Of a stretch of 32,000 nucleotides of DNA, positions 832-16,771 are shown one piece after another. The notes beneath the pieces are model-generated. The model worked only from the letters and a program-made list of their open reading frames with translations, was not told where the DNA came from and did no database searches. The stretch comes from Nonomuraea sp. H19 (GTDB lineage: Bacteria > Actinomycetota > Actinomycetes > Streptosporangiales > Streptosporangiaceae), in assembly GCF_052068215.1 (NCBI RefSeq), contig NZ_JBQHCV010000011.1, positions 242,003 through 274,002 of the forward strand, written 5' to 3'. A program made the position numbers and the translations under genes. Position 1 is the first letter of the stretch, and the number at the start of each line of letters is the position of its first letter.

Positions 832-939
832 TTTTGCCGCATTAGTGGGTCTTCCCAGGCTCTCTCGCGCGGGTTACCTTCCGTTCGGCGAGGCTCGGGG
901 GAATTGCCCGCCTTCCTGTCTCACAGGGGGAAGTCCCGT

Positions 940-2421
940 ATGCGCAGAACCATCATCGTCCTGATCACCGCACTCTCCTTACCGCTCGCCATGGCCGTCC
1001 CGGCCCACGCCGGCGGCCTGGCCGACCTGTTCGCCAAGCTGCTGGTCAAGCAGGTCAAGGGCACGAACGTCAACAAGCACCTGCAAGCCCTGCAGGCCAT
1101 CGGCACCGTCAACGGCGGCAACCGGGCGGCCGGCACGGCTGGTTACGACGCCTCCCGCGACTACGTGGCGAACAAGCTGCGCAAGGCCGGCTACAAGGTC
1201 ACGCTGAATCCGATCAACTTCGTCGAGGGCTGGACGGAGAACGCGCCGCCCGTACTCGGCTCGTACGTGCCGAACCAGGACTTCTTCACCTTCCAGCCCT
1301 CCCCGGCGGGCGACGTGACCGCGCAGGTCCAGGGCGTGGACCTCACGCTGCCGCCCACCCCGGCGCCGACCTCGACCAGCGGCTGCGAGCAGTCCGACTT
1401 CGCCGGGTTCGTGGCCGGCCGCATCGCGCTCATCCAGCGCGGCACCTGTGCGTTCGCCCTGAAGATCCGCAACGCGGGCCGCGCCGGCGCCTCCGGGATC
1501 ATCGTGTTCAACGAAGGCCAGGAGGGACGCACCGAGGCGTACCCACTGGACATCGGTGAGTGGCGGGCGGGGGTGCCCATGGTCTTCGCCGACTTCGCGG
1601 TCGGCAACGCGCTGGCGAGCACGCCGGGCGCGACGATACGGCTCAAGGTCGACGCCACGCTCGTGCTCGGCACCGATGAGAACGTGATCGCCGAGTCCCG
1701 CTTCGGCGACCCCCGCAACGTCGTGATGGCCGGGGCCCACCTCGACAGCGTGCTCGAAGGGCCCGGCATCAACGACAACGGCTCCGGCACCGCGGCGATC
1801 CTGGAGGTCGCCGAGGAGATGGCGAACTACCCGGTCAAGAACAAGGTCCGCTTCGCCTTCTGGGCCGCCGAGGAGATCGGCCTGCTCGGCTCCGACCAGT
1901 ACGTCGAGTCGCTGTCCGAAGAGCAGCGGGACCGGATCCGGGTCTACCTGAACTTCGACATGGTCGCCTCGCCGAACTACGCGTACAAGCTCTACGACGG
2001 GGACAACTCCGACAACGCCGGAGCCCCGGCCGGTCCGCCCGGTTCGGCGGAGATCGAGAAGCAGTTGGAGGCCTTCTACGGGTCCCGCGACCTGCCTACG
2101 GTCGGGACCGACTTCGACGGCCGTTCCGACTACGGGCCGTTCATCGCGGTCGGGATCCCGGCGGGCGGCGTCTTCACGGGCGCGGAAGGCATCAAGACGG
2201 CCGAGGAGGCGGCGCTGTTCGGAGGGACGGCGGGGGTCGCGTACGACGTCTGCTATCACCAGGCGTGCGACACGATCACCAACGTGAACGCGACGGCGCT
2301 GGACGTGAACTCGGACGCGATCGCCGACTCCGTCGCCCGGTACGCCTTCAGCCTCCGCTCCATCCCACCGCGGGCACCGTCATCGAGGGTCGCTGCTTTG
2401 ACAGCGGAAAGCGTCGGCTGA
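940..2421 (+). CDS. Secreted M28-family aminopeptidase with PA (protease-associated) domain
   Basis: Signal peptide MRRTIIVLITALSLPLAMAVPAHA. PA-like segment GRIALIQRGTCAFALKIRNAGRAGASGIIVFNEG. M28 metal-site blocks [30 protein letters not shown] and FAFWAAEEIGLLGS. GGGGGAAG lies 6 nt before ATG 940; the tracked TTG 904 is probably too early. Confidence 0.9.
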   Translation: MRRTIIVLITALSLPLAMAVPAHAGGLADLFAKLLVKQVKGTNVNKHLQALQAIGTVNGGNRAAGTAGYDASRDYVANKLRKAGYKVTLNPINFVEGWTENAPPVLGSYVPNQDFFTFQPSPAGDVTAQVQGVDLTLPPTPAPTSTSGCEQSDFAGFVAGRIALIQRGTCAFALKIRNAGRAGASGIIVFNEGQEGRTEAYPLDIGEWRAGVPMVFADFAVGNALASTPGATIRLKVDATLVLGTDENVIAESRFGDPRNVVMAGAHLDSVLEGPGINDNGSGTAAILEVAEEMANYPVKNKVRFAFWAAEEIGLLGSDQYVESLSEEQRDRIRVYLNFDMVASPNYAYKLYDGDNSDNAGAPAGPPGSAEIEKQLEAFYGSRDLPTVGTDFDGRSDYGPFIAVGIPAGGVFTGAEGIKTAEEAALFGGTAGVAYDVCYHQACDTITNVNATALDVNSDAIADSVARYAFSLRSIPPRAPSSRVAALTAESVG

Positions 2422-2546: not shown

Positions 2547-4148
<1,602 letters not shown>

Positions 4149-6473: not shown

Positions 6474-7283
6474 GTGCCCACCCTGCGCGACTCACCCGGC
6501 ACGGGGATGGCGATGGAATTTCAGGGATGGACCGGCGGCCTGGCCTTACAGCCGCGCGATTACCTGGGGAGAGGCCGGCCACTGGCCGACGTCGTCAGGA
6601 CGGCCGGACCGGTCAGGGGAGAGGCGCTCTACCTGCTGACGCTCGGCAGCGCGGCCACCATGGCCAGGCTGCACCTGGGCGGGATCGCGGGACTGCGGCT
6701 CAGCCCGGGCAACGTCATGATCGGGGCGCACGGGCAGGTGTTCTTCGCCCCAGGGCCGCGTGACAGCGAGTTCCCCTCGCGCGACGTGCGTGACTGGGCC
6801 GACGTGATCATGTTCGCGGCGACCGGGCGGCAGGCGGGGGAGGGCGAAGAGCCCGATCTCGACAGGCTGCTGCCCGCGTTGCGCGCGGTGATCGACGAGT
6901 GCCGGCAGCCCGATCCGGAGTGCCGCCCGACGGCCGTCGAGCTGGTGAGCATCCTGCTCGGCCGCTCCGAGCCGCCCCCCCGCGCCACGGTGGAGGAACT
7001 GCTGCGGGAGGCCGAGAACCGGACCAGGCCGTACGAACCCGCGCCCTACGAGGACGTGCTCGTGTCCACGCCGGTCTGGCGCGAACCGGCGTACCTGGCC
7101 GGTGTCGCGATCGGCGTGCTCATCGTCGCGTTCGCGGCGAGCGTCGTCATCGCGATCTCCAGCGGGGCGGTGCAGGCTTCGTCCGCCGACGCCTTCGAGG
7201 GGAGCGCCGTCACCTCGTACGAGATGAAGCCGACGGTTGGGAACGCTCCAGAACCCATCGAGGGAGAGGTCCGGAATGGCTGA
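6474..7283 (+). CDS. Truncated pseudokinase (kinase C-lobe-like, catalytic residues lost) with one TM helix; candidate EssB/YukC-like component
   Basis: LHLGGIAGLRLSPGNVMIGAHGQVFFAPG replaces the HRD...N...DFG region. Other kinase-like blocks are DVRDWADVIMFAATGRQ and PDPECRPTAVELVSIL. TM helix AYLAGVAIGVLIVAFAASVVIAISSGAV. The start is uncertain (GTG 6474, ATG 6507 or ATG 6513). Confidence 0.6.
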   Translation: MPTLRDSPGTGMAMEFQGWTGGLALQPRDYLGRGRPLADVVRTAGPVRGEALYLLTLGSAATMARLHLGGIAGLRLSPGNVMIGAHGQVFFAPGPRDSEFPSRDVRDWADVIMFAATGRQAGEGEEPDLDRLLPALRAVIDECRQPDPECRPTAVELVSILLGRSEPPPRATVEELLREAENRTRPYEPAPYEDVLVSTPVWREPAYLAGVAIGVLIVAFAASVVIAISSGAVQASSADAFEGSAVTSYEMKPTVGNAPEPIEGEVRNG

Positions 7284-7563
7284 GGAATTCACCGCCGACC
7301 GGCAGGAGGCGGCGAGCGTCTCGCGGGACCTCAAGTCCATTCGCGCGGCCCTGGACGGAGGCAAGATCGGCGCGCTCGACGCGCGGACCGGCTCGGCGAA
7401 GGTCGACGACGCGCTGCGGACGTTCTTCGAGGAGTCCTCGGACAACCGCGAGCGGATGAACCAGCTACTCGAGCGGGCGGCCGGGCTGCTCGACGCCCTC
7501 GTCGAGGGCACCGGGCAGCTCGACGGCTCGCTGGCGGACTCGCTGTCGACGAGGAGCGCGTGA
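7276..7563 (+). CDS. Small (95 aa) predicted all-helical protein; possible WXG100-like partner or targeting factor
   Basis: ATG 7276 follows GGAGAGG and overlaps the upstream stop (ATGGCTGA). The sequence has a heptad-like helical character (LKSIRAALDGG ... MNQLLERAAGLLDALVEG) and no WXG motif. Confidence 0.6.
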   Translation: MAEEFTADRQEAASVSRDLKSIRAALDGGKIGALDARTGSAKVDDALRTFFEESSDNRERMNQLLERAAGLLDALVEGTGQLDGSLADSLSTRSA

Positions 7564-7709
7564 TGAAGGCGCTCGGACTCGGCGTCCTCACCGGCATCCT
7601 GCTCGGGACGATCGTGGTGTCGCTGGTGTTCGCGCTGACGGACCGGAACGTGCCGGCGAACGCTCGATCATCCCAGCCCGCGTACATGGAGGAGCTCTCC
7701 GATGGCTGA
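7563..7709 (+). CDS. 48-aa single-pass membrane peptide (not in ORF track); EssA-sized candidate component
   Basis: Hand translation gives MKALGLGVLTGILLGTIVVSLVFALTDRNVPANARSSQPAYMEELSDG. Its ATG overlaps the upstream TGA (GTGATGA), and its stop overlaps the next ATG (ATGGCTGA). Confidence 0.5.
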   Translation: MKALGLGVLTGILLGTIVVSLVFALTDRNVPANARSSQPAYMEELSDG

Positions 7710-8298
7710 TCTTCCCTTCGGGTTCACGGTACGGGTGCCCGAATCCTGGTACGAGTTCGACGTGTGGCGGGCCGGCCACAGCGGTGACCTGGCGCGCCTG
7801 GTGGACGCCCGGGTGGCGGCCAACCCGGAGCTGGCGCCCCACCGGTCGCTGCTGGTGAAGGTGCTGCGCGAGGTCGCCGACCTGGCGGGCCGGCGCGGCG
7901 CGGTTTTCGGCGCGGCGATGACCGACCACGCGGAGGACGTCGGCACCGTCCTCGCCACCCTCATGGTCCTGCACACCGGGGGATCGCCGGACCCGGAAGG
8001 CAACGCCGTCGAGGCCATCGCCTCGGGCATCATCGCGATCCCGCCCAGGCACGACACACCCGCCTGGCGCGACGTCGAGATCGTGGAGATCGACGCGGGC
8101 CGCGCCGTACGAGTCACCGGCGTCGAGTCCGGCGAGATCGAAGCGGTGACCATGCAGACCCTCATTCCCGTACCCGGCGGGCACGGCGTGCTGGACCTGG
8201 TGCTGACCAGCCCGCACCTGAGCCTGACCGAGCCCATGCTCGATCTGTTCGACGCGATCAGCGCCACCCTGGCCTGGTCCGACCCCCAAGGAGAGTGA
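7702..8298 (+). CDS. Hypothetical 198-aa soluble protein; possible secretion adaptor or chaperone
   Basis: Translationally coupled on both sides. Begins FGFTVRVPESWYEFD and ends with a beta-rich segment (VTMQTLIPVPGGHGVLDLVLTSPHLS...LFDAISATLAW). No family assigned with confidence. Confidence 0.65.
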   Translation: MADLPFGFTVRVPESWYEFDVWRAGHSGDLARLVDARVAANPELAPHRSLLVKVLREVADLAGRRGAVFGAAMTDHAEDVGTVLATLMVLHTGGSPDPEGNAVEAIASGIIAIPPRHDTPAWRDVEIVEIDAGRAVRVTGVESGEIEAVTMQTLIPVPGGHGVLDLVLTSPHLSLTEPMLDLFDAISATLAWSDPQGE

Positions 8299-8304
8299 AC
8301 CGTC

Positions 8305-8607
8305 ATGGCAGGTGGGACCCATCACCTCAGCTTCCCCCAGGTGGAGAACAGCGCCACCCGGCTGAACAAGGAGAAGGAGGACATCGAGAGCCGTCTGACC
8401 CAGCTCAAGTCGATGATCGACCAGCTCGTCAGCAGCGACTTCGTCACCGAGCGCGCCTCGGGCAAGTTCCAGCAGGACTACGACCAGTGGAACAACGGCG
8501 CCAGGCAGGTCATGCAGGGCCTGGAGGGCATGAGCCAGTTCCTCAAGACCGCCATCGCCAAGCACCGCGAGCTGGACGCCTCGCTCAGCGGCGGCGCGGG
8601 AGCGTGA
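8305..8607 (+). CDS. WXG100-family (EsxA-like) small secreted protein
   Basis: 100 aa with a helix-turn-helix pattern and a central FQQDYDQWNNGARQVMQGLEGMSQFL block (W-x-x-G variant of WXG). GGAGAG lies 9 nt before the ATG. Sits immediately upstream of the Rhs toxin. Confidence 0.85.
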   Translation: MAGGTHHLSFPQVENSATRLNKEKEDIESRLTQLKSMIDQLVSSDFVTERASGKFQQDYDQWNNGARQVMQGLEGMSQFLKTAIAKHRELDASLSGGAGA

Positions 8608-8611
8608 CGTC

Positions 8612-11600
8612 ATGCCGGGCGGATGGGAGGTGCTCGGGCTGCCCGGCGACCCCGCGCCCGGGAACCCGGGCGAGGTTCGGGGACTCGCCGGCCGGCTGCT
8701 CAAGGAAGCGCAGCTCGCCGAGGACAACACGGCCAAGTTGACGGCGGTGGCGGGTGGCAGCTCGGCGTTGCGGATGCGCGGGGATTACGCGGCGCGGTAC
8801 GCCGAGGCGCTGGGCGAGCTGCCCGGCGAGCTGACCAAGCTGGGCAAGGCGTACCGGGGCGCCGGGAACGCGCTGATGGCCTATGCCGGTTCGCTGGAGC
8901 AGGCCAAGACCCAGGCCGGTACGGCGCTGCGCCAGGGCCAGACGGCCGACGTCCAGTACCGGGGCGCGTTACGGGAGGTACAGGCGCAGCTGCCGGGCGC
9001 GGGCGCGGTGGGGAGCCTGGCGGAGGCGGAGTCGGCGGTCGGCGCGGCGGATCCGGCGGTGCAGGCGGCGGTGCGGCCGGCGGTGCAGCGGGCCCGCGCC
9101 GCCGACGCCGACCGGGCGCGGGCGCGGCGGATCGCCGATGAGGCGGCCCAGTTGCGCGGTGATGCCGAGAGCCGGGCGGTGCGGGAGATCGATCAGGCGC
9201 TGGCGGGCAGCGGCATCAAGAACAAGTCGTTCCTGCAGAAGGCGTGGGACGTGATCTCGACGCCGTTCCGGTCGTGGGATGACTTCGTGTCGTTCGCGGG
9301 CAAGGTGGCGCTGGTGGCCGGGCTGGTGGTGCTGGTGATCGGCACCGGCGGGCTGGCCGGGGTGGTGCTGGCCGGGGTCGCGGTGGCGGCCGGGGCGGTG
9401 GTGCTGGCCGACGCGCTCAACAAGTACCGCCAGGGCAGGGGCTCCTTGGGGCAGGTGGCGCTGGCCGCGGTCGGGGTGATCCCGGGCGGCAAGAGCATCG
9501 GCCTGCTGGCCCAGGGGGCCAAGGCCGTGACCGGGCTGCGCGGCGCCGCCGCGGCCGTCCGCGGCGGCGGAGGCACGCTGCTGGGACTCGGCGCGGCGGG
9601 GATCCGCGGCGGCCGGGCCGCCCTGGGAGCCGGGGCGACGTCGATCCGCTCGGCGATCCAGGCGGGCGGGTCGCGGGCCGGTGCGACGGCGACCGCGGCC
9701 TGGCAGCGCGGCCGGCAGTTCTTCAGCAAGGACCCGGTGCACTTCCCCACCGGTATCGTGCTGCTCCCGCAGACGGACGTGGACCTGCCGGGGGCACTGC
9801 CGCTGCGGCTGGAGCGCACACATCTGTCCAGCTACCGTACGGGGCGCTGGTTCGGCCGATCCTGGGCCTCGACCCTGGACCAACGCGTGGAGGCGGACGC
9901 CGAAGGCGTGTGCCTGGCCACCGCCGGCGGCGCCGTACTCGCCTTCCCGCATCCCGAGCCCGGCCAGGCCGTCCACCCCGACGACGGTCCCCGCCTGGCA
10001 TTGCGCGCGGAAGGGACCGGCTACACGGTCACCGACCCGCACACCGGCCACACCACCCACTTCGCACCATTACCGCAAGAGGATTCGAAGGTGCTGCCGA
10101 TCGCGGCGATCACCGACCGCAACGGCGACCGCGTCGACTTCCACTACACCGACGGCCTGCTCACCGAGGTGACCCACTCCGGCGGCTACCACCTGGACAT
10201 CGAGACCGCGCACGGCCGCATCGTGGAGATCCGCCTGCGCGGCGCCGGCCAGAGCCTCGTCTCCTACGCCTACGACGAGGCCGGCGACCTGACCGAGGTG
10301 ACCAACTCTTCTGGCCTGCCGCTGCGTTTCACCTACGACGACGACGGCCGGATGACCCGCTGGCACGACCGCATCGGCACCTGGTACGCCTACACCTACG
10401 ACGGGGAAGGCCGCTGCGTTTACGGCACCGGCAAGGACGGCATCTTCAACACGGAGATCAGCTACGGGGACGGCGTCACCCGCGCGTACGACTCACTGGG
10501 CCACGCCACCACGTACCACTACAACGACCTCCTTCAGGTAGTCGCCGAGACCAACCCCCTCGGCCACGTAACCCGCTACCACTGGGACCACTACGACCGC
10601 TTGCTGTCGCAGACCGACCCGCTGGGCCGCACCGTGCGGTATACCTACGACGAGTTCGGCATGCCGCTTTCGATCAGCCGCCCGGACGGTGCCACTCGTC
10701 GCCACACCTACAACGACCTGCACCTGCCGGTCACTATCACCGACTACGACGGCAGCGTCCACGCGTTCGAATACGACGAGCGCGGCAACATCATCAGCGA
10801 CGGCGACAGCCGCTTCACCTACAACCAGCACGGACACCTGGCCGCGATCACCAACGCCCTGGGCCACACCTGCAGCGTGCGAACGGATGCTGCCGGGCTG
10901 CCGGTGGAGGTCACCGATGCGCTGGGCGGGACGACCCGCTATGAGCGCGATGCTTTTGGGCGAGCCACCGCCATCACCGACGCCCTCGGCAACACCACCC
11001 GCTACACCTGGACAGTGGAGGGCAAGCCGGCCAGTCGCACGCTACCTAGCGGCGTGACCGAACGCTGGCGGTATGACGGGGAGAACAACCTCATCGAACA
11101 CGTCGACGCGCTCGGCCGGGCGACCCACACCGAAGTCGGCTCCTTCGACGTGGCCACCGCACTGACCACCGCGGGCGGTGCCCGTCTGGAGCTCGCCTAC
11201 GACACCGAGTTGCGCCTCGCCCAGGTCACCAACCCCCAGGGGCTGACCTGGCACTACACCTACGACGCGGAAGGCGACCTGATCCGGGAGACCGACTTCA
11301 ACCACCGTACGCTGACCTACGTCCGGGACGCGGCCGGCAGGTTGATCGAACGCGTCAACGGGGCCGGAGAGTCCACCAGCTACACCCACGACGTTCTGGG
11401 CCAGGTCATCGAGCAGCGCTCGGAGGACCGCGTCACCACGTTCGCCTACGATGCGCTCGGCCGCCTGACCTGGGCGGTGAACCCGGATGCCGACCTGCGC
11501 ATCAGTCGAGACGCTCACGGCAGGATCACCGCCGAAACCTGCAACGGGCGCACGCTCACCTCGGCCTACGACGCACTCGGCCGACGCGTACACCGCCGCA

Positions 11601-13036
11601 CCCCCTCAGGAGCGGAAGCGGTTTGGGATTACAACCCGCGCAACCAGCCCAAGATGCTGCAGACAGCCGGCCAGACGGTCGCTTTCGCCTATGATCCAGC
11701 GGGCCACGAAATTGGTCGAAATTTCGGCACAAACGTCTCGCTGATTCATGACTGGGACCCCGACTCCCGCCTCCGCGCCCAGACCCTCCGCACCGGAAAT
11801 CGGCTCATCCAGCGGCGCACCTACGACTATCGCCCAGACGGCCATCTCATTCAGATCGACGACCTGCTGTCCGGCCGCCGCCACTACGACCTGGATCCGG
11901 TCGGCCGCGTTACCGGTGTCCAGGGCGCGAACTGGTCGGAGCGCTACACCTACAACGCCGCCGGCCAGATCACCGACGCCACATGGCCGGCGTCGTCGGA
12001 CGCCCGCGGCCCTCGCGCCTACACGGGGACAATGATCCGCCAGGCGGGCCGTACGCGATATGAGTACGACCGTCAGGGCCGGGTGACCCTCCGCCAGCAG
12101 AAGGGCCTGTCATCGAGACCCAGGACATGGCGCTACACGTGGGACGCCGACGACCGCCTGACAGGCGTCACCACGCCGGATGGCGCGACCTGGCGCTACT
12201 TGTACGACCCCCTCGGCCGCCGCGTAGCGAAAGAACGGGTGAACGGTTCCGAGCGTACGGATTTCGTCTGGGACGGCCTCACCCTGGCCGAGCAGACCAC
12301 CGAGGACCGCACGACGGTATGGGACTGGATCCCCGGCACCTTCCACCCTCTCTCCCAGACAGAGCGCCGAGCCGATTCCCAGGAGTGGATCGATGAGCAG
12401 TTCTACGCCATCGCCACTGACTTGATCGGCACCCCTGCCGAACTCGTGGATCCAGACGGCAACCTGGCCTGGCGCACGAGGCAGGACTTGTGGGGAGCCT
12501 CGACCGACCTTGTCTCGACCGGAGCCGACTGTCCCTTGCGGTTCCCTGGCCAGTACGCGGACGAGGAGTCCGGTCTTCAGTACAACTACTTCCGTCACTA
12601 CGACCCGGCCAGCGCTCATTACCTGGCAAGCGACCCCATCGGCCTCTCCGGTGGCTGGAACCCGCACGCCTACGTGGACAACCCGAAGTCATGGTGCGAC
12701 CCGCTGGGGCTGAGCCCGTACGGGACCTCGATCTGGAGTTCGACGAGCAGCAGGACGTCGGTCGAGAACGCGTATGGTCACTGGCGCAGCCACGGGCGGG
12801 AATTCCCGCACCTGAACAACGCGAAGGAATATGTGGAGGAAGCGACGGGCTTCCTGACCGGCGGCCATCCGGGCACGCTCACCAGGCACCGGCCGAACGG
12901 CGACGTCGTTCGCTACAATCCGCAGACCGATCAGTTCGGCGTGCGGAACGCGCAGGGCGTTCCGCGAACATATTTCATACCGGACCCGCAGGTCCACGGA
13001 TATCCGACCAATCTGGACTACTTCAATGCCCAATAA
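8612..13036 (+). CDS. Rhs/YD-repeat polymorphic toxin with N-terminal helical secretion-signal-like domain and a TM block
   Basis: N-terminus: WEVLGLPGDPAPGNPGEVRGLA...YAGSLEQAKTQAGTAL. Hydrophobic block: VALVAGLVVLVIGTGGLAGVVLAGVAVAAGAVVLA. DUF6531-like block: DPVHFPTGIVLLPQTDVDLPGALPLRLERTHLSSY..FGRSW. Dozens of YD repeats (YTYDxxGR). Rhs core end: RFPGQYADEESGLQYNYFRHYDP...NPKSWCDPLGL. Confidence 0.95.
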   Translation: MPGGWEVLGLPGDPAPGNPGEVRGLAGRLLKEAQLAEDNTAKLTAVAGGSSALRMRGDYAARYAEALGELPGELTKLGKAYRGAGNALMAYAGSLEQAKTQAGTALRQGQTADVQYRGALREVQAQLPGAGAVGSLAEAESAVGAADPAVQAAVRPAVQRARAADADRARARRIADEAAQLRGDAESRAVREIDQALAGSGIKNKSFLQKAWDVISTPFRSWDDFVSFAGKVALVAGLVVLVIGTGGLAGVVLAGVAVAAGAVVLADALNKYRQGRGSLGQVALAAVGVIPGGKSIGLLAQGAKAVTGLRGAAAAVRGGGGTLLGLGAAGIRGGRAALGAGATSIRSAIQAGGSRAGATATAAWQRGRQFFSKDPVHFPTGIVLLPQTDVDLPGALPLRLERTHLSSYRTGRWFGRSWASTLDQRVEADAEGVCLATAGGAVLAFPHPEPGQAVHPDDGPRLALRAEGTGYTVTDPHTGHTTHFAPLPQEDSKVLPIAAITDRNGDRVDFHYTDGLLTEVTHSGGYHLDIETAHGRIVEIRLRGAGQSLVSYAYDEAGDLTEVTNSSGLPLRFTYDDDGRMTRWHDRIGTWYAYTYDGEGRCVYGTGKDGIFNTEISYGDGVTRAYDSLGHATTYHYNDLLQVVAETNPLGHVTRYHWDHYDRLLSQTDPLGRTVRYTYDEFGMPLSISRPDGATRRHTYNDLHLPVTITDYDGSVHAFEYDERGNIISDGDSRFTYNQHGHLAAITNALGHTCSVRTDAAGLPVEVTDALGGTTRYERDAFGRATAITDALGNTTRYTWTVEGKPASRTLPSGVTERWRYDGENNLIEHVDALGRATHTEVGSFDVATALTTAGGARLELAYDTELRLAQVTNPQGLTWHYTYDAEGDLIRETDFNHRTLTYVRDAAGRLIERVNGAGESTSYTHDVLGQVIEQRSEDRVTTFAYDALGRLTWAVNPDADLRISRDAHGRITAETCNGRTLTSAYDALGRRVHRRTPSGAEAVWDYNPRNQPKMLQTAGQTVAFAYDPAGHEIGRNFGTNVSLIHDWDPDSRLRAQTLRTGNRLIQRRTYDYRPDGHLIQIDDLLSGRRHYDLDPVGRVTGVQGANWSERYTYNAAGQITDATWPASSDARGPRAYTGTMIRQAGRTRYEYDRQGRVTLRQQKGLSSRPRTWRYTWDADDRLTGVTTPDGATWRYLYDPLGRRVAKERVNGSERTDFVWDGLTLAEQTTEDRTTVWDWIPGTFHPLSQTERRADSQEWIDEQFYAIATDLIGTPAELVDPDGNLAWRTRQDLWGASTDLVSTGADCPLRFPGQYADEESGLQYNYFRHYDPASAHYLASDPIGLSGGWNPHAYVDNPKSWCDPLGLSPYGTSIWSSTSSRTSVENAYGHWRSHGREFPHLNNAKEYVEEATGFLTGGHPGTLTRHRPNGDVVRYNPQTDQFGVRNAQGVPRTYFIPDPQVHGYPTNLDYFNAQ
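12713..13036 (+). other. C-terminal variable toxin domain (107 aa) of the Rhs protein, family unassigned
   Basis: Starts right after the DPLGL cleavage motif (12698-12712). Sequence: SPYGTSIWSS...VENAYGHWRSHGREFPHLNNAKEYVEEATGF...VVRYNPQTDQFGVRNAQGVPRTYFIPD. GC is visibly lower than in the YD-repeat body. Confidence 0.65.
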
Positions 13037-13292
13037 TGGCAATCTGTACTGTCGAGTCTGCGGACTGCTTCAGAAGGGCCCGCCGTGGGGCGAGGACGGA
13101 AGAACGCCTTCGTGGGACATCTGCGCCTGCTGTGGAATTGAATTCGGCTATCAAGATGCCACGCCGGCGGGTGTCCTCCGAGCCAGGAACGCGTGGATCG
13201 CCAAAGGATGCCCTTGGTTTGACGAGCCGAAGCGACCTCCGGGTTGGCACATGGAAGAGCAGCTCGCGCACGCTCAAGACGTGGACGCGTGA
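13026..13292 (+). CDS. Small Cys-rich (CxxC...CxxC) protein; candidate cognate immunity protein
   Basis: The ATG lies 11 nt inside the toxin gene end. 88 aa, containing YCRVCG...ICACCGIEFGY. It is in the classic immunity position directly after an Rhs C-terminal domain and in the same lower-GC patch. No clear SD. Confidence 0.55.
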   Translation: MPNNGNLYCRVCGLLQKGPPWGEDGRTPSWDICACCGIEFGYQDATPAGVLRARNAWIAKGCPWFDEPKRPPGWHMEEQLAHAQDVDA

Positions 13293-13478
13293 GGGGCGCC
13301 TCGACCCGCCGGTCCAGAATGAGCCTGTCCGACCCCGTCCGGTGCGCCGCCGCTGAGGTCGAGACCCGGTGGTCTCAGGGCCTGATGGCCAGATCAGTAA
13401 TGGCCGTCGCTTTCGTGCTCGACGTTTGTGAACTTGCCGGTTCGCAGGGCCTCTCTGGCCGAGGCCATCCGGGTGTGG

Positions 13479-14384
13479 TCACGAGGACAGCGCGTCGCGG
13501 ATGACGGTGATCAACGTCTGCTGCAAAGGGGACAGGCGCTTGTCTGTGCGCCAGACGACGAAGACCGGCAGGCGCGGCTGGGTGCCGGCGATCCGGATCT
13601 CGTGAAGCGCGCCTGTGGCCAGTTCTGCGGCCACCGAGGCGCGAAAGAGCAGCGCGACGCCGAGCCCGGCGCGGACGGCGTGTTTGATCGCCTCGGGGTG
13701 GCCGAACTCGATGACCACCTCGCGGTCGGTGACGCCGAGTTCGGCGAGCGCTGTGTCCTCCAGGTCGCGCCGGATGGAGGAGCGCGGCGTGGCGACGAAG
13801 GGCAGCCGGGCCAGTTCCTCCACCGAGATGCTGTCGTTCACCGTGCCGGGCGCGCCGGCGAGCACGAGATCCTGGTGACCGGCGAACTGCCCGGTGAGGC
13901 CGCGGCTGTGGGGAATCCGCGGGGCGATCGGGACGGCCAGGTCGCACAACCCGGAGGTGACGGCCTCCCAGATCTGGTTCGGGTCGAACACGTGCGCCGC
14001 GATCCGCGCGCCCGGATGGGCCAGGGCGAAGTCGGTGAGGACGGGCGGCAGCAAGTAGCTGCCCACGGTCATGCTGGTGGCCACGGCCACGGCCCCCGCG
14101 GTGCCGCCGGCGAGGCCGGCCAGCTCGCGATCGAGCTCGTTGCCGCGGCGCAGTGTGTCGCGGGACCACCGGTAAGCGATGTGGCCCGCGTCGGTGAGCT
14201 CCAGGCGCTGGCCCACGCGGTGGAACAGCTCGACGCCCAGCCGTTCCTCAAGCGAACGGATGTGGCCGCTTACGACGGGCTGCGAGACATACAGGTGGGC
14301 GGCGGCGCGGCCCACGCCTCCCTGCTCCACGACAGCGCAGAAGACCTCGAGCTTGTGCAGGGAGATGCGGTTGTCTATAGCCAT
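13479..14384 (-). CDS. LysR-family transcriptional regulator
   Basis: N-terminal HTH LHKLEVFCAVVEQGGVGRAAAHLYVSQPVVSGHIRSLEERLGVELFHR followed by a substrate-binding domain. Start is ATG at 14384; the longer tracked ORF extension is rejected. Confidence 0.9.
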   Translation of the reverse strand: MAIDNRISLHKLEVFCAVVEQGGVGRAAAHLYVSQPVVSGHIRSLEERLGVELFHRVGQRLELTDAGHIAYRWSRDTLRRGNELDRELAGLAGGTAGAVAVATSMTVGSYLLPPVLTDFALAHPGARIAAHVFDPNQIWEAVTSGLCDLAVPIAPRIPHSRGLTGQFAGHQDLVLAGAPGTVNDSISVEELARLPFVATPRSSIRRDLEDTALAELGVTDREVVIEFGHPEAIKHAVRAGLGVALLFRASVAAELATGALHEIRIAGTQPRLPVFVVWRTDKRLSPLQQTLITVIRDALSS

Positions 14385-14495
14385 ATGACTATGAGTATCG
14401 CAAGATATTCGTCTTTGCCCCCTGTTGTAGGTGGTCCTAGCCTGATCCAGGCATCCATTCCCGCATATGGGTCGCCTGCGGAAAGGACCTTCCCG

Positions 14496-15293
14496 ATGAC
14501 CACGTTCACCTACCACGGGGCAGACGGCCACCCGTTGCACGCCACCACGATCGGCGCCGACGGACCGCCCCTCGTCCTGCTGCACGGTGGCGGCCCCGAT
14601 CATCACAGCCTGCTGCCGCTGGCCCGCCGCCTCGCCGACCTGCACACCGTGATCCTCCCCGACGTACGAGGCTACGGCCGGTCGGTCTGCGCCGATCCCG
14701 CCCGGCACACCTGGGACCAGTACACCTGCGACGTGCTCGCCCTGCAGGATCACCTGGGCATCCGGAGCGCCGTGCTGGGCGGCACGGGCCTGGGCGCTAC
14801 CGTGACCCTGCGTACCGCGCTCGCCCACCCGGACCGCGTCCGCGCCGCCATCCTGATCGGCGTTGAGGACATCGAGGACGACCAGGACAAGGAGGCCGAG
14901 ACCGCGTTCCTCGACGCGTTCGCCGCCCGAGTGCTCGCCGACGGCGTCGAGGCGGCCTGGGCGCCGATCCTGGAACGGTTCCCGCCGGTCATCGGCGCCA
15001 TGGTGCGCGACGCGATCCCGCGCTCGGATCCGGCCAGCATCGCCGCGGCGGCGGCCATCGGCCGCGACCGGGCCTTCCGGGGCCTCGACGAACTCGCCGC
15101 GATCAGCTCGCCGACTCTGGTCATCCCAGGAACCGATCCGCGCCATCCGAGGGAGCTCGGCGAGCAGGTCGCCGGGGTGCTGCGCAGGGGCCGCCTCGCG
15201 CCGGTCGCCGTCTCGGCCGACCTGCACACCGCCGACGACCTCGCGGCGGCGATCGTCCCGGCGATCCGCGCCTTCCTCAGCGACCCTCGCTGA
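14496..15293 (+). CDS. Alpha/beta-hydrolase fold protein (non-canonical nucleophile elbow)
   Basis: PPLVLLHGGGPDHHSLLPLARRLADLHTVILPDVRGYGRS ... AVLGGTGLGATV ... PTLVIPG. GGAAAGGA lies 7 nt before ATG 14496. Divergent from the LysR gene. Confidence 0.85.
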   Translation: MTTFTYHGADGHPLHATTIGADGPPLVLLHGGGPDHHSLLPLARRLADLHTVILPDVRGYGRSVCADPARHTWDQYTCDVLALQDHLGIRSAVLGGTGLGATVTLRTALAHPDRVRAAILIGVEDIEDDQDKEAETAFLDAFAARVLADGVEAAWAPILERFPPVIGAMVRDAIPRSDPASIAAAAAIGRDRAFRGLDELAAISSPTLVIPGTDPRHPRELGEQVAGVLRRGRLAPVAVSADLHTADDLAAAIVPAIRAFLSDPR

Positions 15294-15295
15294 CC

Positions 15296-15760
15296 ATGGA
15301 GAACGGCACGCTGCTGGTCCGCGATGGACACCTCTACACCGCCGACGAGAGCGCGCGCACCCACCGGGCGGGTTCGGTGCTGGCCGTGAACGGGCGGATC
15401 GTCGCGGTGGGCGAGACACCGACGGTGGACCTGGCCGCCGCCGCGCTGAGCCGGCGAGAGCGCGCCAGTCTGCGCACGATCGACGCGAGCGGGATGCTGA
15501 TCCTGCCCGGCTTCGTCAACGCGCACTGGCACGAGGTGCTCGCCAGGGGCCTGTCCCAGTTCGGGCCGCAGGATTACCTGCCCGGCCGGCCCGGCACCGC
15601 GTCCGGGGTGACACTCGGGCTCGCTGTGAGCGTCGGCGGGCTCAGCGCCCCCGCACTGGGCGCGGCGGCCGAGGCGTACGGACCTCAGGGCGTCTTCACC
15701 ATATTGTGTCTGGTCCCGGTGGCCGCCGTCATGCTGGGCCTCTTCCTCCCCCGCGAATGA
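15296..15760 (+). pseudogene. Chimeric relic: amidohydrolase N-terminus fused in frame to an MFS-transporter-like C-terminal tail
   Basis: Residues 1-~85 are VNGRIVAVGE...IDASGMLILPGFVNAHWHEV, an amidohydrolase start with the HxH metal motif. The remaining ~300 residues of such enzymes are absent. The tail GVTLGLAVSVGGLSAPALGAAAEAYGPQGVFTILCLVPVAAVMLGLFLPRE looks like the last TM helices of a transporter. Confidence 0.55.
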
Positions 15761-15914
15761 CGGCACAAGCGGACGATGCCCCCAGGTCCGGGCATCCGCG
15801 AAGGTCGGCGCGGGCGCCGGCTGGGGGAGACCAATCGTGATCAAACAGCCAGGCCGGCAAACGTCCAGCTCAGCAGGTTACTGCGGAAGAGCTACACCCA
15901 TCGCGTTCCGCTTC

Positions 15915-16508
15915 TCAGTTGCGGACCAGCGGCGCGGCGAACCACTGCTGGAGCAGGCTGCCACCCTTGCAACTGCCGACGCCCACCTCGGCGTTGCCCC
16001 GCACGTTGGGCTGAGCGCTGGTCAGGCACTTCTTGGTGGCGAAGTTCTGCATCCTGAAGGCGTCCTTGAAAGGTGCGGGCGCGTCGTTCGCCAGCTTGAA
16101 CGCCCACTTCTGGGTCTGCTTGCCACCCACGCACCGGGCGACGAACAGCCGACCTGCGCTGTCGGCCTCCAGACACACGGTCTGCCCGCGCACGAGCTTC
16201 CTGCTGACCAGCTTGCCGCCGTTGATGAAGTTCCACTGCTGCTCGACGTCGTTGCCGCCGCGGGCGAACCTGCTGAAGACCTGGCCCTTGCCGCTTGCGC
16301 CGACGTCGCCGACCTCCAATGTCAGGTTGGTCTTGCGGTTGCTGATGTTCAGGGTGCCGGCCGGCGGTGCGGCGGCCACCGACGCGGCGTCGGCGGAGGC
16401 GGCCATGGGGGCGGCGGCAGCCGCGGCGACCAGGGCCGCGCTCATGGCGCCGAGCGCCGCGCCACGCCGGAGGGTACGGGCGGCGCCAAATGACAGGGCA
16501 TGCTTCAT
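15915..16508 (-). CDS. Secreted ricin-type beta-trefoil lectin domain protein
   Basis: Signal peptide with RR (ARTLRRGAALGAMSAALVAAAAAAPMAASA). Three QxW-type repeats (EQQWNF, TQKWAF, LQQWFA) and paired Cys. AAGGAGAAAGACC precedes the ATG. Confidence 0.85.
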   Translation of the reverse strand: MKHALSFGAARTLRRGAALGAMSAALVAAAAAAPMAASADAASVAAAPPAGTLNISNRKTNLTLEVGDVGASGKGQVFSRFARGGNDVEQQWNFINGGKLVSRKLVRGQTVCLEADSAGRLFVARCVGGKQTQKWAFKLANDAPAPFKDAFRMQNFATKKCLTSAQPNVRGNAEVGVGSCKGGSLLQQWFAAPLVRN

Positions 16509-16771
16509 GGTCTTTCTCCTTGTGGATCATGACAAAGCGTCCGCCGTGCCATGGAGGTCGACTGATCTGGCCACAGCCCCGCATCACTAGTGGGAGCCGG
16601 CAGGGCACGAACCTAGGCACGGGCACTGTCCACTCTCCAAGCCGGTTTCTGACCAATCGATGCTCGACCGACCAGCCCGTCCCAACCCGGCCCTCCAGGT
16701 GCCGCGCCCCGGCCGGCATCCGCGCGCGCCGGCCATCGCTCGAGGGCTGATGAGCACTTCTCGGACGATGA

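Follow-up and report, generated by a model that had tools for sequence, protein, structure and literature searches.

Organisation of the toxin-immunity cassette

The DNA analysed here, referred to as the window, is a stretch of 32,000 nucleotides from Nonomuraea sp. H19 (contig NZ_JBQHCV010000011.1, positions 242,003 to 274,002 of the forward strand), and all coordinates count from its first letter. It carries a gene for a large Rhs polymorphic toxin ending in a 107-residue tip, and an overlapping gene for a protein of 88 amino acids (aa) with four paired cysteines. Sequence comparison and structural modelling make it very probable that these two elements form the toxin-immunity module with which an Rhs effector of a WXG100/EccC (type VII secretion) locus ends, a colicin D-like RNase tip being paired in it with a zinc-ribbon immunity protein. 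The features of the cassette are as follows.

8612..13036, plus strand: Rhs polymorphic toxin, 1474 aa (helical/transmembrane N-terminus, DUF6531, YD/RHS repeats, Rhs-associated core, toxin tip)
12698..12712, plus strand: DPLGL motif, Rhs residues 1363-1367, which closes the Rhs-associated core and is the presumed site of autoproteolytic tip release
12713..13036, plus strand: C-terminal toxin domain, 107 aa; predicted colicin D-like BECR RNase fold
12779..12805, plus strand: predicted active-site helix motif H1390-W-R-S-H1394-G-R-E1397-F1398 (tip H23 to F31), from conservation and the colicin D alignment
12968..12970, plus strand: T1453 (tip T86), located on strand beta4 and paired with colicin D S677 in the profile alignment
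12980..13033, plus strand: C-terminal tail PDPQVHGYPTNLDYFNAQ (tip residues 90-107), the type of which tracks the immunity family
13026..13036, plus strand: overlap of toxin stop and immunity start, 11 nt, read from the sequence
13026..13292, plus strand: immunity protein, 88 aa, with CRVC at residues 9-12 and CACC at residues 33-36
13050..13133, plus strand: predicted zinc-ribbon core, C9-x2-C12 ... C33-x2-C36 with a PPWGEDG insert, from the alignment

The YD/RHS repeat shell of the Rhs protein is recognised by both Pfam (PF05593 RHS_repeat, E=4.9e-87, 17 stretches) and NCBIfam (TIGR01643, E=2e-77), and DUF6531 is matched by Pfam with E=1.4e-19. The Rhs-associated core model TIGR03696 (Rhs_assc_core, NCBIfam) spans residues 1294-1367 with E=2.9e-20, and the end of the model coincides with the end of the DPLGL motif. 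Rhs proteins cleave themselves at a motif of the DPLGL type, which frees the C-terminal tip. The tip encoded in the window would be severed behind DPLGL and passed into a competing cell.

An earlier reading of this DNA from its letters (the original prediction) had placed a 107-aa tip directly after DPLGL, and both its coordinates and its length agree with ours. The same reading gave the next open reading frame (ORF) as opening 11 nt within the toxin gene and encoding 88 aa with two CxxC pairs, all of which we find as described. Its numbering of the two histidines in GHWRSHG as 1389 and 1393 was off by one, and these residues are H1390 and H1394 of the Rhs protein. The ATG of the immunity gene is made from the Asn-Ala codons of the toxin (aAT Gcc caa TAA), with the toxin TAA at 13034-13036, and the 88-aa protein would be translated by coupling from this ATG inside the toxin's last codons.

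Judged by the number of their relatives, the tip and the 88-aa ORF are real genes. At least 424 protein clusters homologous to the toxin domain were found in a profile search and 430 loci were confirmed in a scan of one genome per species, while a full HMMER scan with the 88-aa family gave 2,292 clusters at 50% identity at E<=1e-3 and 612 at E<=1e-10.

Homology and fold of the toxin tip

The tip has no match in Pfam or NCBIfam at E<=1. A phmmer search of the PDB matched tip residues 17-94 to 8ey4_A, a 'PT-VENN domain-containing protein' (E=9.7e-26), and a profile of the tip family matched the same toxin with E=1.8e-33. Entry 8EY4, released in 2023, is titled 'Contact-dependent growth inhibition toxin-immunity protein complex from E. 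coli O32:H37'. The family profile also reached the chains of colicin D, with marginal E-values of 0.047-0.41 (best about 0.05).

An AlphaFold2 (AF2) model of the tip, built from 13 homologues, has a score of 92.3 in the predicted form of the local distance difference test (pLDDT) and the topology H16-30, H37-49, E56-59, E65-69, E74-78, E84-88, H92-95, H100-106 (tip numbering). In a Foldseek search with this model, 8ey4_A ranked first (E=2.3e-10, template modelling (TM) score 0.76 by query and 0.92 by target, root-mean-square deviation 0.9 A, 49% identity), and was followed by the tRNase domains of colicin D (1tfo, 1v74 and 5znm) with probability 1.00, TM scores of 0.53-0.59 and 13-15% identity; Foldseek returned no credible match besides these. 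The 'Colicin-like' BECR topology is described as a pre-alpha helix, an alpha helix and strands beta1-4, with the active-site residues on the pre-alpha helix and beta4 (bioRxiv 10.64898/2026.08.28.747851). The elements of the model follow this order exactly and then continue into a two-helix tail. The computed homology and the modelled fold place the tip among the BECR RNases, in their colicin D branch; at the level of hidden Markov models (HMMs) it is not a member of Pfam Colicin_D. The original prediction had seen in the tip a small RNase-type toxin of no assignable family; the RNase type stands, and the family can now be given, through homology to the CdiA-CT toxin of 8EY4 and placement in the colicin D branch.

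The toxin domain is carried by several scaffolds. It is fused to Rhs, PT-HINT, PT-VENN (CdiA), PAAR and haemagglutinin-repeat proteins, is found next to VgrG, PAAR and DUF4123 genes as cargo of a type VI secretion system (T6SS; locus L012), and occurs as a small free-standing protein (L008). Judged from these sequences, such a spread over scaffolds is the behaviour of a polymorphic-toxin domain. The nearest relatives of the tip are in Nonomuraea maheshkhaliensis (93%) and N. fuscirosea (92%). A pair of toxin and window-type immunity genes is also present on a contig of an uncultured Candidatus Bathyarchaeia metagenome-assembled genome (MAG; L090), where a binning artefact or an inter-domain transfer is possible.

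Predicted active site and RNA substrate

The start of the tip had been described from its letters as H-x3-H-x2-EF, and in an alignment of 83 homologues this proved to be the conserved motif H-x3-H-x2-[ED]F of the predicted active-site helix. Each of the tip residues H23, H27 and F31 occurs in 78 of the 83 homologues, and the remaining sequences are gapped or truncated there; D or E occupies position 30 in 77. At position 86, on strand beta4, 82 homologues have T and one has S.

The profile alignment sets KKY-KHAGDF of colicin D opposite dHfkkHgadF of the tip family, and the colicin D strand ...FLSG opposite ...irTy. When the alignment is anchored on H611, residues K608, H611, D614 and S677 of colicin D correspond to tip H23, H27, E30 and T86 (Rhs H1390, H1394, E1397 and T1453), and F615 corresponds to F31. 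In colicin D, residues K607, K608, H611, D614 and S677 are essential, and the signature of the clade is [KH]K, Hxx[ED] and [ST] (Zhang et al. 2012, PMC3482391). The tip has the Hxx[ED] element (H27..E30) and the [ST] element (T86). At the [KH]K position it has the conserved H23 opposite K608 and no Lys pair, with K or R at position 26 in 55 of the 83 homologues. From this residue correspondence, which is computed, H1394 is the probable catalytic histidine, equivalent to H611 of colicin D, and would be assisted by H1390, E1397 and T1453.

We infer that the tip has RNase activity. It would act as a metal-independent RNase in the target cell, where by analogy with colicin D its most likely substrate is tRNA. 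The alternative, that the toxin-immunity pair is real but the toxin cuts rRNA or mRNA, or needs a host cofactor like several BECR-fold toxins of contact-dependent growth inhibition (CDI), we regard as rather unlikely. It draws on the fact that the link to colicin D consists of the fold and four active-site positions only, at an identity of 13-15%, and on the two-helix C-terminal tail, which colicin D lacks and which could alter the way substrate is bound. Among other BECR toxins there are some that act on rRNA and some that depend on EF-Tu or CysK. Set against these points, the characterised members of the colicin-like BECR group cut mostly tRNAs (bioRxiv 10.64898/2026.08.28.747851), and the K/H...Hxx[DE]...[ST] constellation is a specific match to the colicin D clade (PMC3482391).

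The 88-residue protein, a probable zinc-ribbon immunity protein

The 88-aa protein has no match in Pfam (E<=1) or NCBIfam and no meaningful sequence match in the PDB, whether searched alone or as a profile. It consists of a predicted N-terminal Cys4 zinc ribbon and a Trp-rich, helical C-terminal part. C9, C12, C33 and C36 are invariant in 79 aligned sequences and C35 is conserved in 87% only, so that on this alignment the CxxC...CxxC set C9/C12/C33/C36 likely provides the metal ligands. The protein would fold around one Zn ion held by these four cysteines, and would bind the toxin 1:1 in the producer cell and thereby block it.

The gene pairing was computed by scanning the fetched loci with HMMs of the window-type family and of the family of the 8EY4 immunity chain (Cys_rich_CPCC, hereafter CPCC), and was counted over 80 species-level toxin loci. 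In 74 of the 80 the toxin is immediately followed, on the same strand, by a window-type Cys4 gene, most commonly with the 11-nt overlap seen in the window (39 of the 74), for which conserved Asn-Ala codons of the toxin supply the immunity ATG. The settings of the pair include Nonomuraea Rhs/WXG100 loci, an acidobacterial Rhs array of orphan cassettes, a myxobacterial PT-HINT fragment and a T6SS locus; it was also seen at L001, L004, L008, L009, L010 and L012. Members of the family occur as a tandem of four copies in one protein (P0024), as fusions with Barstar (P0028, E=6.5e-14) and DMP19 (P0052, E=3.6e-26), and as orphans with no toxin (L005, with a further orphan in L064).

This genomic association identifies the 88-aa protein as the tip's cognate immunity protein and supports the original suggestion that the overlapping Cys4 ORF might be an immunity gene. 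Zinc ribbons commonly bind nucleic acids, and the structural model of the protein is of low confidence, so one could picture it instead as a nucleic-acid-binding regulator, a chaperone or a secretion adaptor of the toxin and not as an inhibitor. We consider this highly improbable. The gene lies directly 3' of the toxin whether delivery is by an Rhs protein of a type VII secretion system (T7SS), by a T6SS, by CdiA or by a PT-HINT protein. Such pairing across delivery systems, together with orphans, tandem arrays and fusions to other immunity domains (Barstar, DMP19), is what one expects of immunity proteins and speaks against a role as adaptor or regulator. The 8EY4 complex, moreover, was deposited with the related CPCC protein as its immunity chain.

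Several loci of the survey deserve separate mention. In a Gemmataceae MAG (L005, 2543-2821; also L006 and L007) a lone window-type Cys4 gene lies between a gene for a 772-aa planctomycete protein with no Pfam match and a DUF1501 gene, and no toxin domain was detected in the L005 locus. At L014 (1003-1260) the public gene call that follows toxin P0001 is in the wrong frame and fused to a helix-turn-helix/transposase ORF, and the HMM recovers an intact immunity ORF of the window type, overlapping the toxin by the usual 11 nt; miscalls of this sort may hide many members of the family. Within the window itself no second toxin/immunity copy or orphan module was found, the CPCC HMM also being without a match there, and scans for terminators, promoters and Rfam families around the cassette gave no match. 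Literature searches, in which many subscription papers were not covered, found no description of the 8EY4 toxin, of the window-type Cys4 family or of CPCC (PF14206) immunity proteins.

Toxin tail and immunity family

The six loci that lack a window-type gene (L062, L064, L071, L079, L084 and L093) encode a Cys_rich_CPCC protein (Pfam PF14206, E=1e-20 to 1e-30) next to the toxin. The same CPCC protein is chain I of 8EY4 and has been solved alone as 8EY3. The two types of immunity gene divide exactly with the C-terminal tail of the toxin. Long-tail toxins (...PDPxxHGYPTNLDYFNAQ) are followed by a window-type Cys4 protein in 74 of 74 loci and short-tail toxins (...RTMFKPDxGLxYWxRQ) by a CPCC protein in six of six, so that tail type predicted the immunity family in all 80 loci.

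The two immunity families are themselves related. An hhalign comparison of residues 1-39 of the window family with residues 1-32 of CPCC gave a probability of 96.2% (E=2.7e-9, score 46.7), and controls with the reversed profile and 20 column-shuffled profiles scored at most 12.9. The original prediction had called a zinc-ribbon protein atypical for immunity. This does not apply here: all 80 loci have one of the two zinc-ribbon families and the 8EY4 complex includes a CPCC immunity protein, and across the sequences compared, zinc-ribbon immunity is the rule for this toxin clade and not an oddity.

The tail of the toxin is probably part of the surface to which the immunity protein binds, because the immunity family switches exactly when the tail switches. 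A bolder and more tentative proposal, to which we give about one chance in three at best, is that two related zinc-ribbon immunity families have co-diversified with two alternative tails of one colicin D-like RNase domain, and that specificity is read mainly from a swappable tail clamped by the zinc-ribbon protein, instead of through a tRNA mimic that blocks the active site, as in the colicin D-ImmD pair. If this were true, the window-type family (at least 2,292 clusters, for which no Pfam model, structure or paper was found) would be a new and widespread class of metal-dependent immunity proteins.

In Serratia plymuthica NBRC 102599 (L064, 1310-2050) an 8EY4-like toxin gene comes first, a CPCC gene next and a window-type orphan last. 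This orphan may protect against the sister toxin subfamily.

Base composition and history of the cassette

The cassette had been suspected to have a lower GC content than its flanks, with no calculation made. This holds, as positions 12713-13292 have a GC content of 0.621 against a window mean of 0.712 (standard deviation 0.032), which is in the lowest 0.1% of 580-nt windows. GC at third codon positions (GC3) is 0.80 in the tip and 0.66 in the immunity gene, compared with 0.86 in the Rhs core and 0.94 in the Rhs N-terminus.

N. fuscirosea and N. thailandensis show the same dip at their orthologous loci, where the tip has a GC content of 0.61-0.63 vs 0.74 for the core and a GC3 of 0.78-0.85 vs 0.97. 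Gene order, tip and immunity gene are common to these two loci and the window, so that the Rhs-tip-immunity unit is syntenic as a whole. Identity to the N. fuscirosea and N. thailandensis orthologues is 91.6% and 78.5% for the tip, 64-77% for the Rhs core and 75-77% for the immunity protein. The tip is thus conserved above both the Rhs shell and the immunity protein, the reverse of the 'conserved core, variable tip' pattern that is usual among paralogous Rhs genes.

A recent swap of the cassette was considered and is ruled out, as the Nonomuraea orthologues carry the same tip, immunity gene and GC dip. The original proposal of a horizontally swapped toxin/immunity tip thus stands in so far as the tip is a swappable polymorphic-toxin domain, and falls where it would imply a recent exchange. 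From the distribution of its homologues over many phyla and scaffolds, the toxin-immunity module is plainly mobile over long timescales. By the same kind of comparison it is old in the Nonomuraea lineage, and any transfer into that lineage was not recent, because the low GC is common to the orthologous loci.

The GC signal is best read as that of an insert that is incompletely ameliorated or constrained in composition. Whether horizontal transfer needs to be invoked at all is a closer question, and we give somewhat less than an even chance to the explanation that the dip arises from codon constraints and amino-acid composition in two overlapping genes that are small and strongly conserved. The recurrence of the dip in both orthologous loci, the synteny of the entire unit and the greater conservation of the tip (79-92%) than of the core (64-77%) speak for such constraints. 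Low values are also seen for GC3 (0.66-0.80 vs 0.86-0.94), which protein constraint affects little, and the presence of the pair in many phyla and scaffolds indicates that the module does move; both speak for transfer. Given an old acquisition, the transfer and compositional readings are compatible.

Secretion context and neighbouring genes

The genes around the cassette that bear on its delivery, and those in the segment downstream of it, are as follows.

8305..8607, plus strand: WXG100 (ESAT-6-like) gene directly upstream of the Rhs gene (Pfam PF06013, E=4.7e-13), which marks a type VII secretion setting
13479-14450, minus strand: LysR regulator
14481-15293, plus strand: alpha/beta hydrolase
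15915-16508, minus strand: ricin-B lectin
16772..20974, minus strand: EccC/EssC-like FHA-FtsK/SpoIIIE ATPase (FtsK_SpoIIIE E=3.8e-45, FHA E=5.5e-11)

The WXG100 protein is also matched by NCBIfam TIGR03930 with E=3e-11, at a score slightly under the cut-off, and the WXG100-Rhs gene order recurs in two other Nonomuraea loci (L001 and L004). In both of these the EccC/EssC-like ATPase gene adjoins the immunity gene directly, in convergent orientation. The N-terminus of the Rhs protein gives a weak match to T7SS_signal (E=0.0043, 17.4 bits vs a cut-off of 27). The ATPase is the likely secretion motor of the locus, and type VII export of the Rhs protein is plausible. The ATPase has an N-terminal FHA/Yop-YscD_cpl domain, an architecture that is the same in the Nonomuraea loci and that we take to resemble firmicute EssC more than mycobacterial EccC.

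In the window about 4.3 kb (13293-17546) lie between the immunity gene and the main part of the eccC-like gene. This segment has no DNA match in the syntenic Nonomuraea loci, contains the LysR regulator, alpha/beta hydrolase and ricin-B lectin genes, and appears to be an insertion specific to the window.

Just upstream of the WXG100 gene is an ORF of 198 aa (7702-8298, plus strand) with no Pfam or NCBIfam match, which has counterparts in the same position in N. thailandensis (198 aa) and N. fuscirosea (196 aa) and may be an uncharacterised T7SS accessory gene. A further ORF of 108 aa (7237-7563, plus strand) has no significant family match in Pfam. Two convergent genes for M28 peptidases of 505 aa (904-2421, plus strand, and 2547-4064, minus strand), one with a PA domain, are apparently unrelated to the toxin locus.

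Weighing of the interpretation

Some of the results count against the interpretation of the locus as a type VII-secreted, colicin D-like RNase with a zinc-ribbon immunity protein. Pfam Colicin_D (PF11429) does not match the tip at E<=1, and the sequence link between the tip and colicin D is marginal when taken alone (E=0.05). BECR relatives also cut rRNA or mRNA, and tRNA as the substrate is argued solely from the analogy with colicin D, because the literature searches turned up no account of the 8EY4 toxin's activity. The AF2 model of the immunity protein, made from a 9-sequence alignment, has a pLDDT of 67.7, and its Foldseek matches were noise (E>3), so that it supports no conclusion on structure. 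The T7SS assignment draws on neighbouring genes and on the sub-threshold T7SS_signal match.

For a tip without any match in the domain databases, our interpretation supplies a fold, a probable catalytic centre and a homologue of solved structure. From its genomic associations, a very common small Cys4 'hypothetical protein' is identified as an immunity protein. The rule that connects tail and immunity family, seen in 80 of 80 loci, could serve for annotating hundreds of loci and for studying how toxin-immunity specificity evolves, and a predicted RNase payload is added to the actinomycete Rhs effectors linked to type VII secretion.

Comparison with known systems

The closest known relative is the CdiA-CT toxin of 8EY4. 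The toxin domain of this protein and the tip share the H-W-x-[KR]-H-G-x-E-F helix and the NGD...YNP...RT[MY]F core, and in both systems a small Cys4 zinc-ribbon immunity protein is encoded directly downstream. They differ at the C-terminus, where toxins of the 8EY4 type end in ...RTMFKP[DE]xG(L/I)xYWxxQ and lack the HGYPTNLDYFNAQ tail of the window tip. The 8EY4 immunity protein is a Cys_rich_CPCC protein (PF14206), unlike that of the window, and only the first ~35 residues, the zinc ribbon, can be aligned. Delivery differs as well, being by CdiA and a type V secretion system in a gamma-proteobacterium for 8EY4, and by an Rhs protein and a putative T7SS in an actinomycete for the window.

The PF14206 HMM gave no match at E<=1 to the window protein or to its Serratia homologue. 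CPCC and the window family are both short proteins with an alignable N-terminal zinc ribbon of the form CxxCG...[FY]EICxxCGxE, but the window family has the seven-residue PPWGEDG insert in the ribbon, and the C-terminal halves differ (FGYxD...R..W...G..W......P..W....Q in the window family vs WEDDP.Q..DP...GGAN..SL.EA in CPCC).

Colicin D (1V74, 1TFO, 5ZNM; Tox-ColD) resembles the tip in the BECR order of its elements and in a similar RxxG..V.FNP.T strand region. It is unlike the tip in that identity is 13-15%, PF11429 does not match the tip, and the window domain has an extra two-helix C-terminal tail. The immunity families listed for Tox-ColD are ImmD and Imm64, in a table that includes neither actinobacteria nor T7SS (PMC3482391). 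Both are unrelated to the 88-aa protein of the window, which has no Pfam match.

BECR-Tox2 has a KH motif in its N-terminal part and another conserved His close to beta4, and in polymorphic-toxin loci a small domain-less immunity gene is next to it; it falls outside the colicin-like group, occurs mostly as PIN fusions in Menshen defence systems, and is described with no mention of zinc (bioRxiv 10.64898/2026.08.28.747851). Compared by description only, BECR-Tox2 and BECR-Imm2 are superficially like the HW[KR]xH...H95 pattern of the tip and its small unannotated neighbour. Identity of the two pairs is unlikely, because no PIN domain was found among the 120 best toxin homologues.

The locus is thus a known and fairly ordinary kind of system, namely an Rhs polymorphic toxin with a predicted colicin D-like RNase tip and a cognate immunity protein. 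What is new, as far as comparison of sequences can establish it, is the assignment itself, and the recognition of a large uncatalogued zinc-ribbon immunity family that is distantly related to CPCC and tied to a distinct toxin tail.

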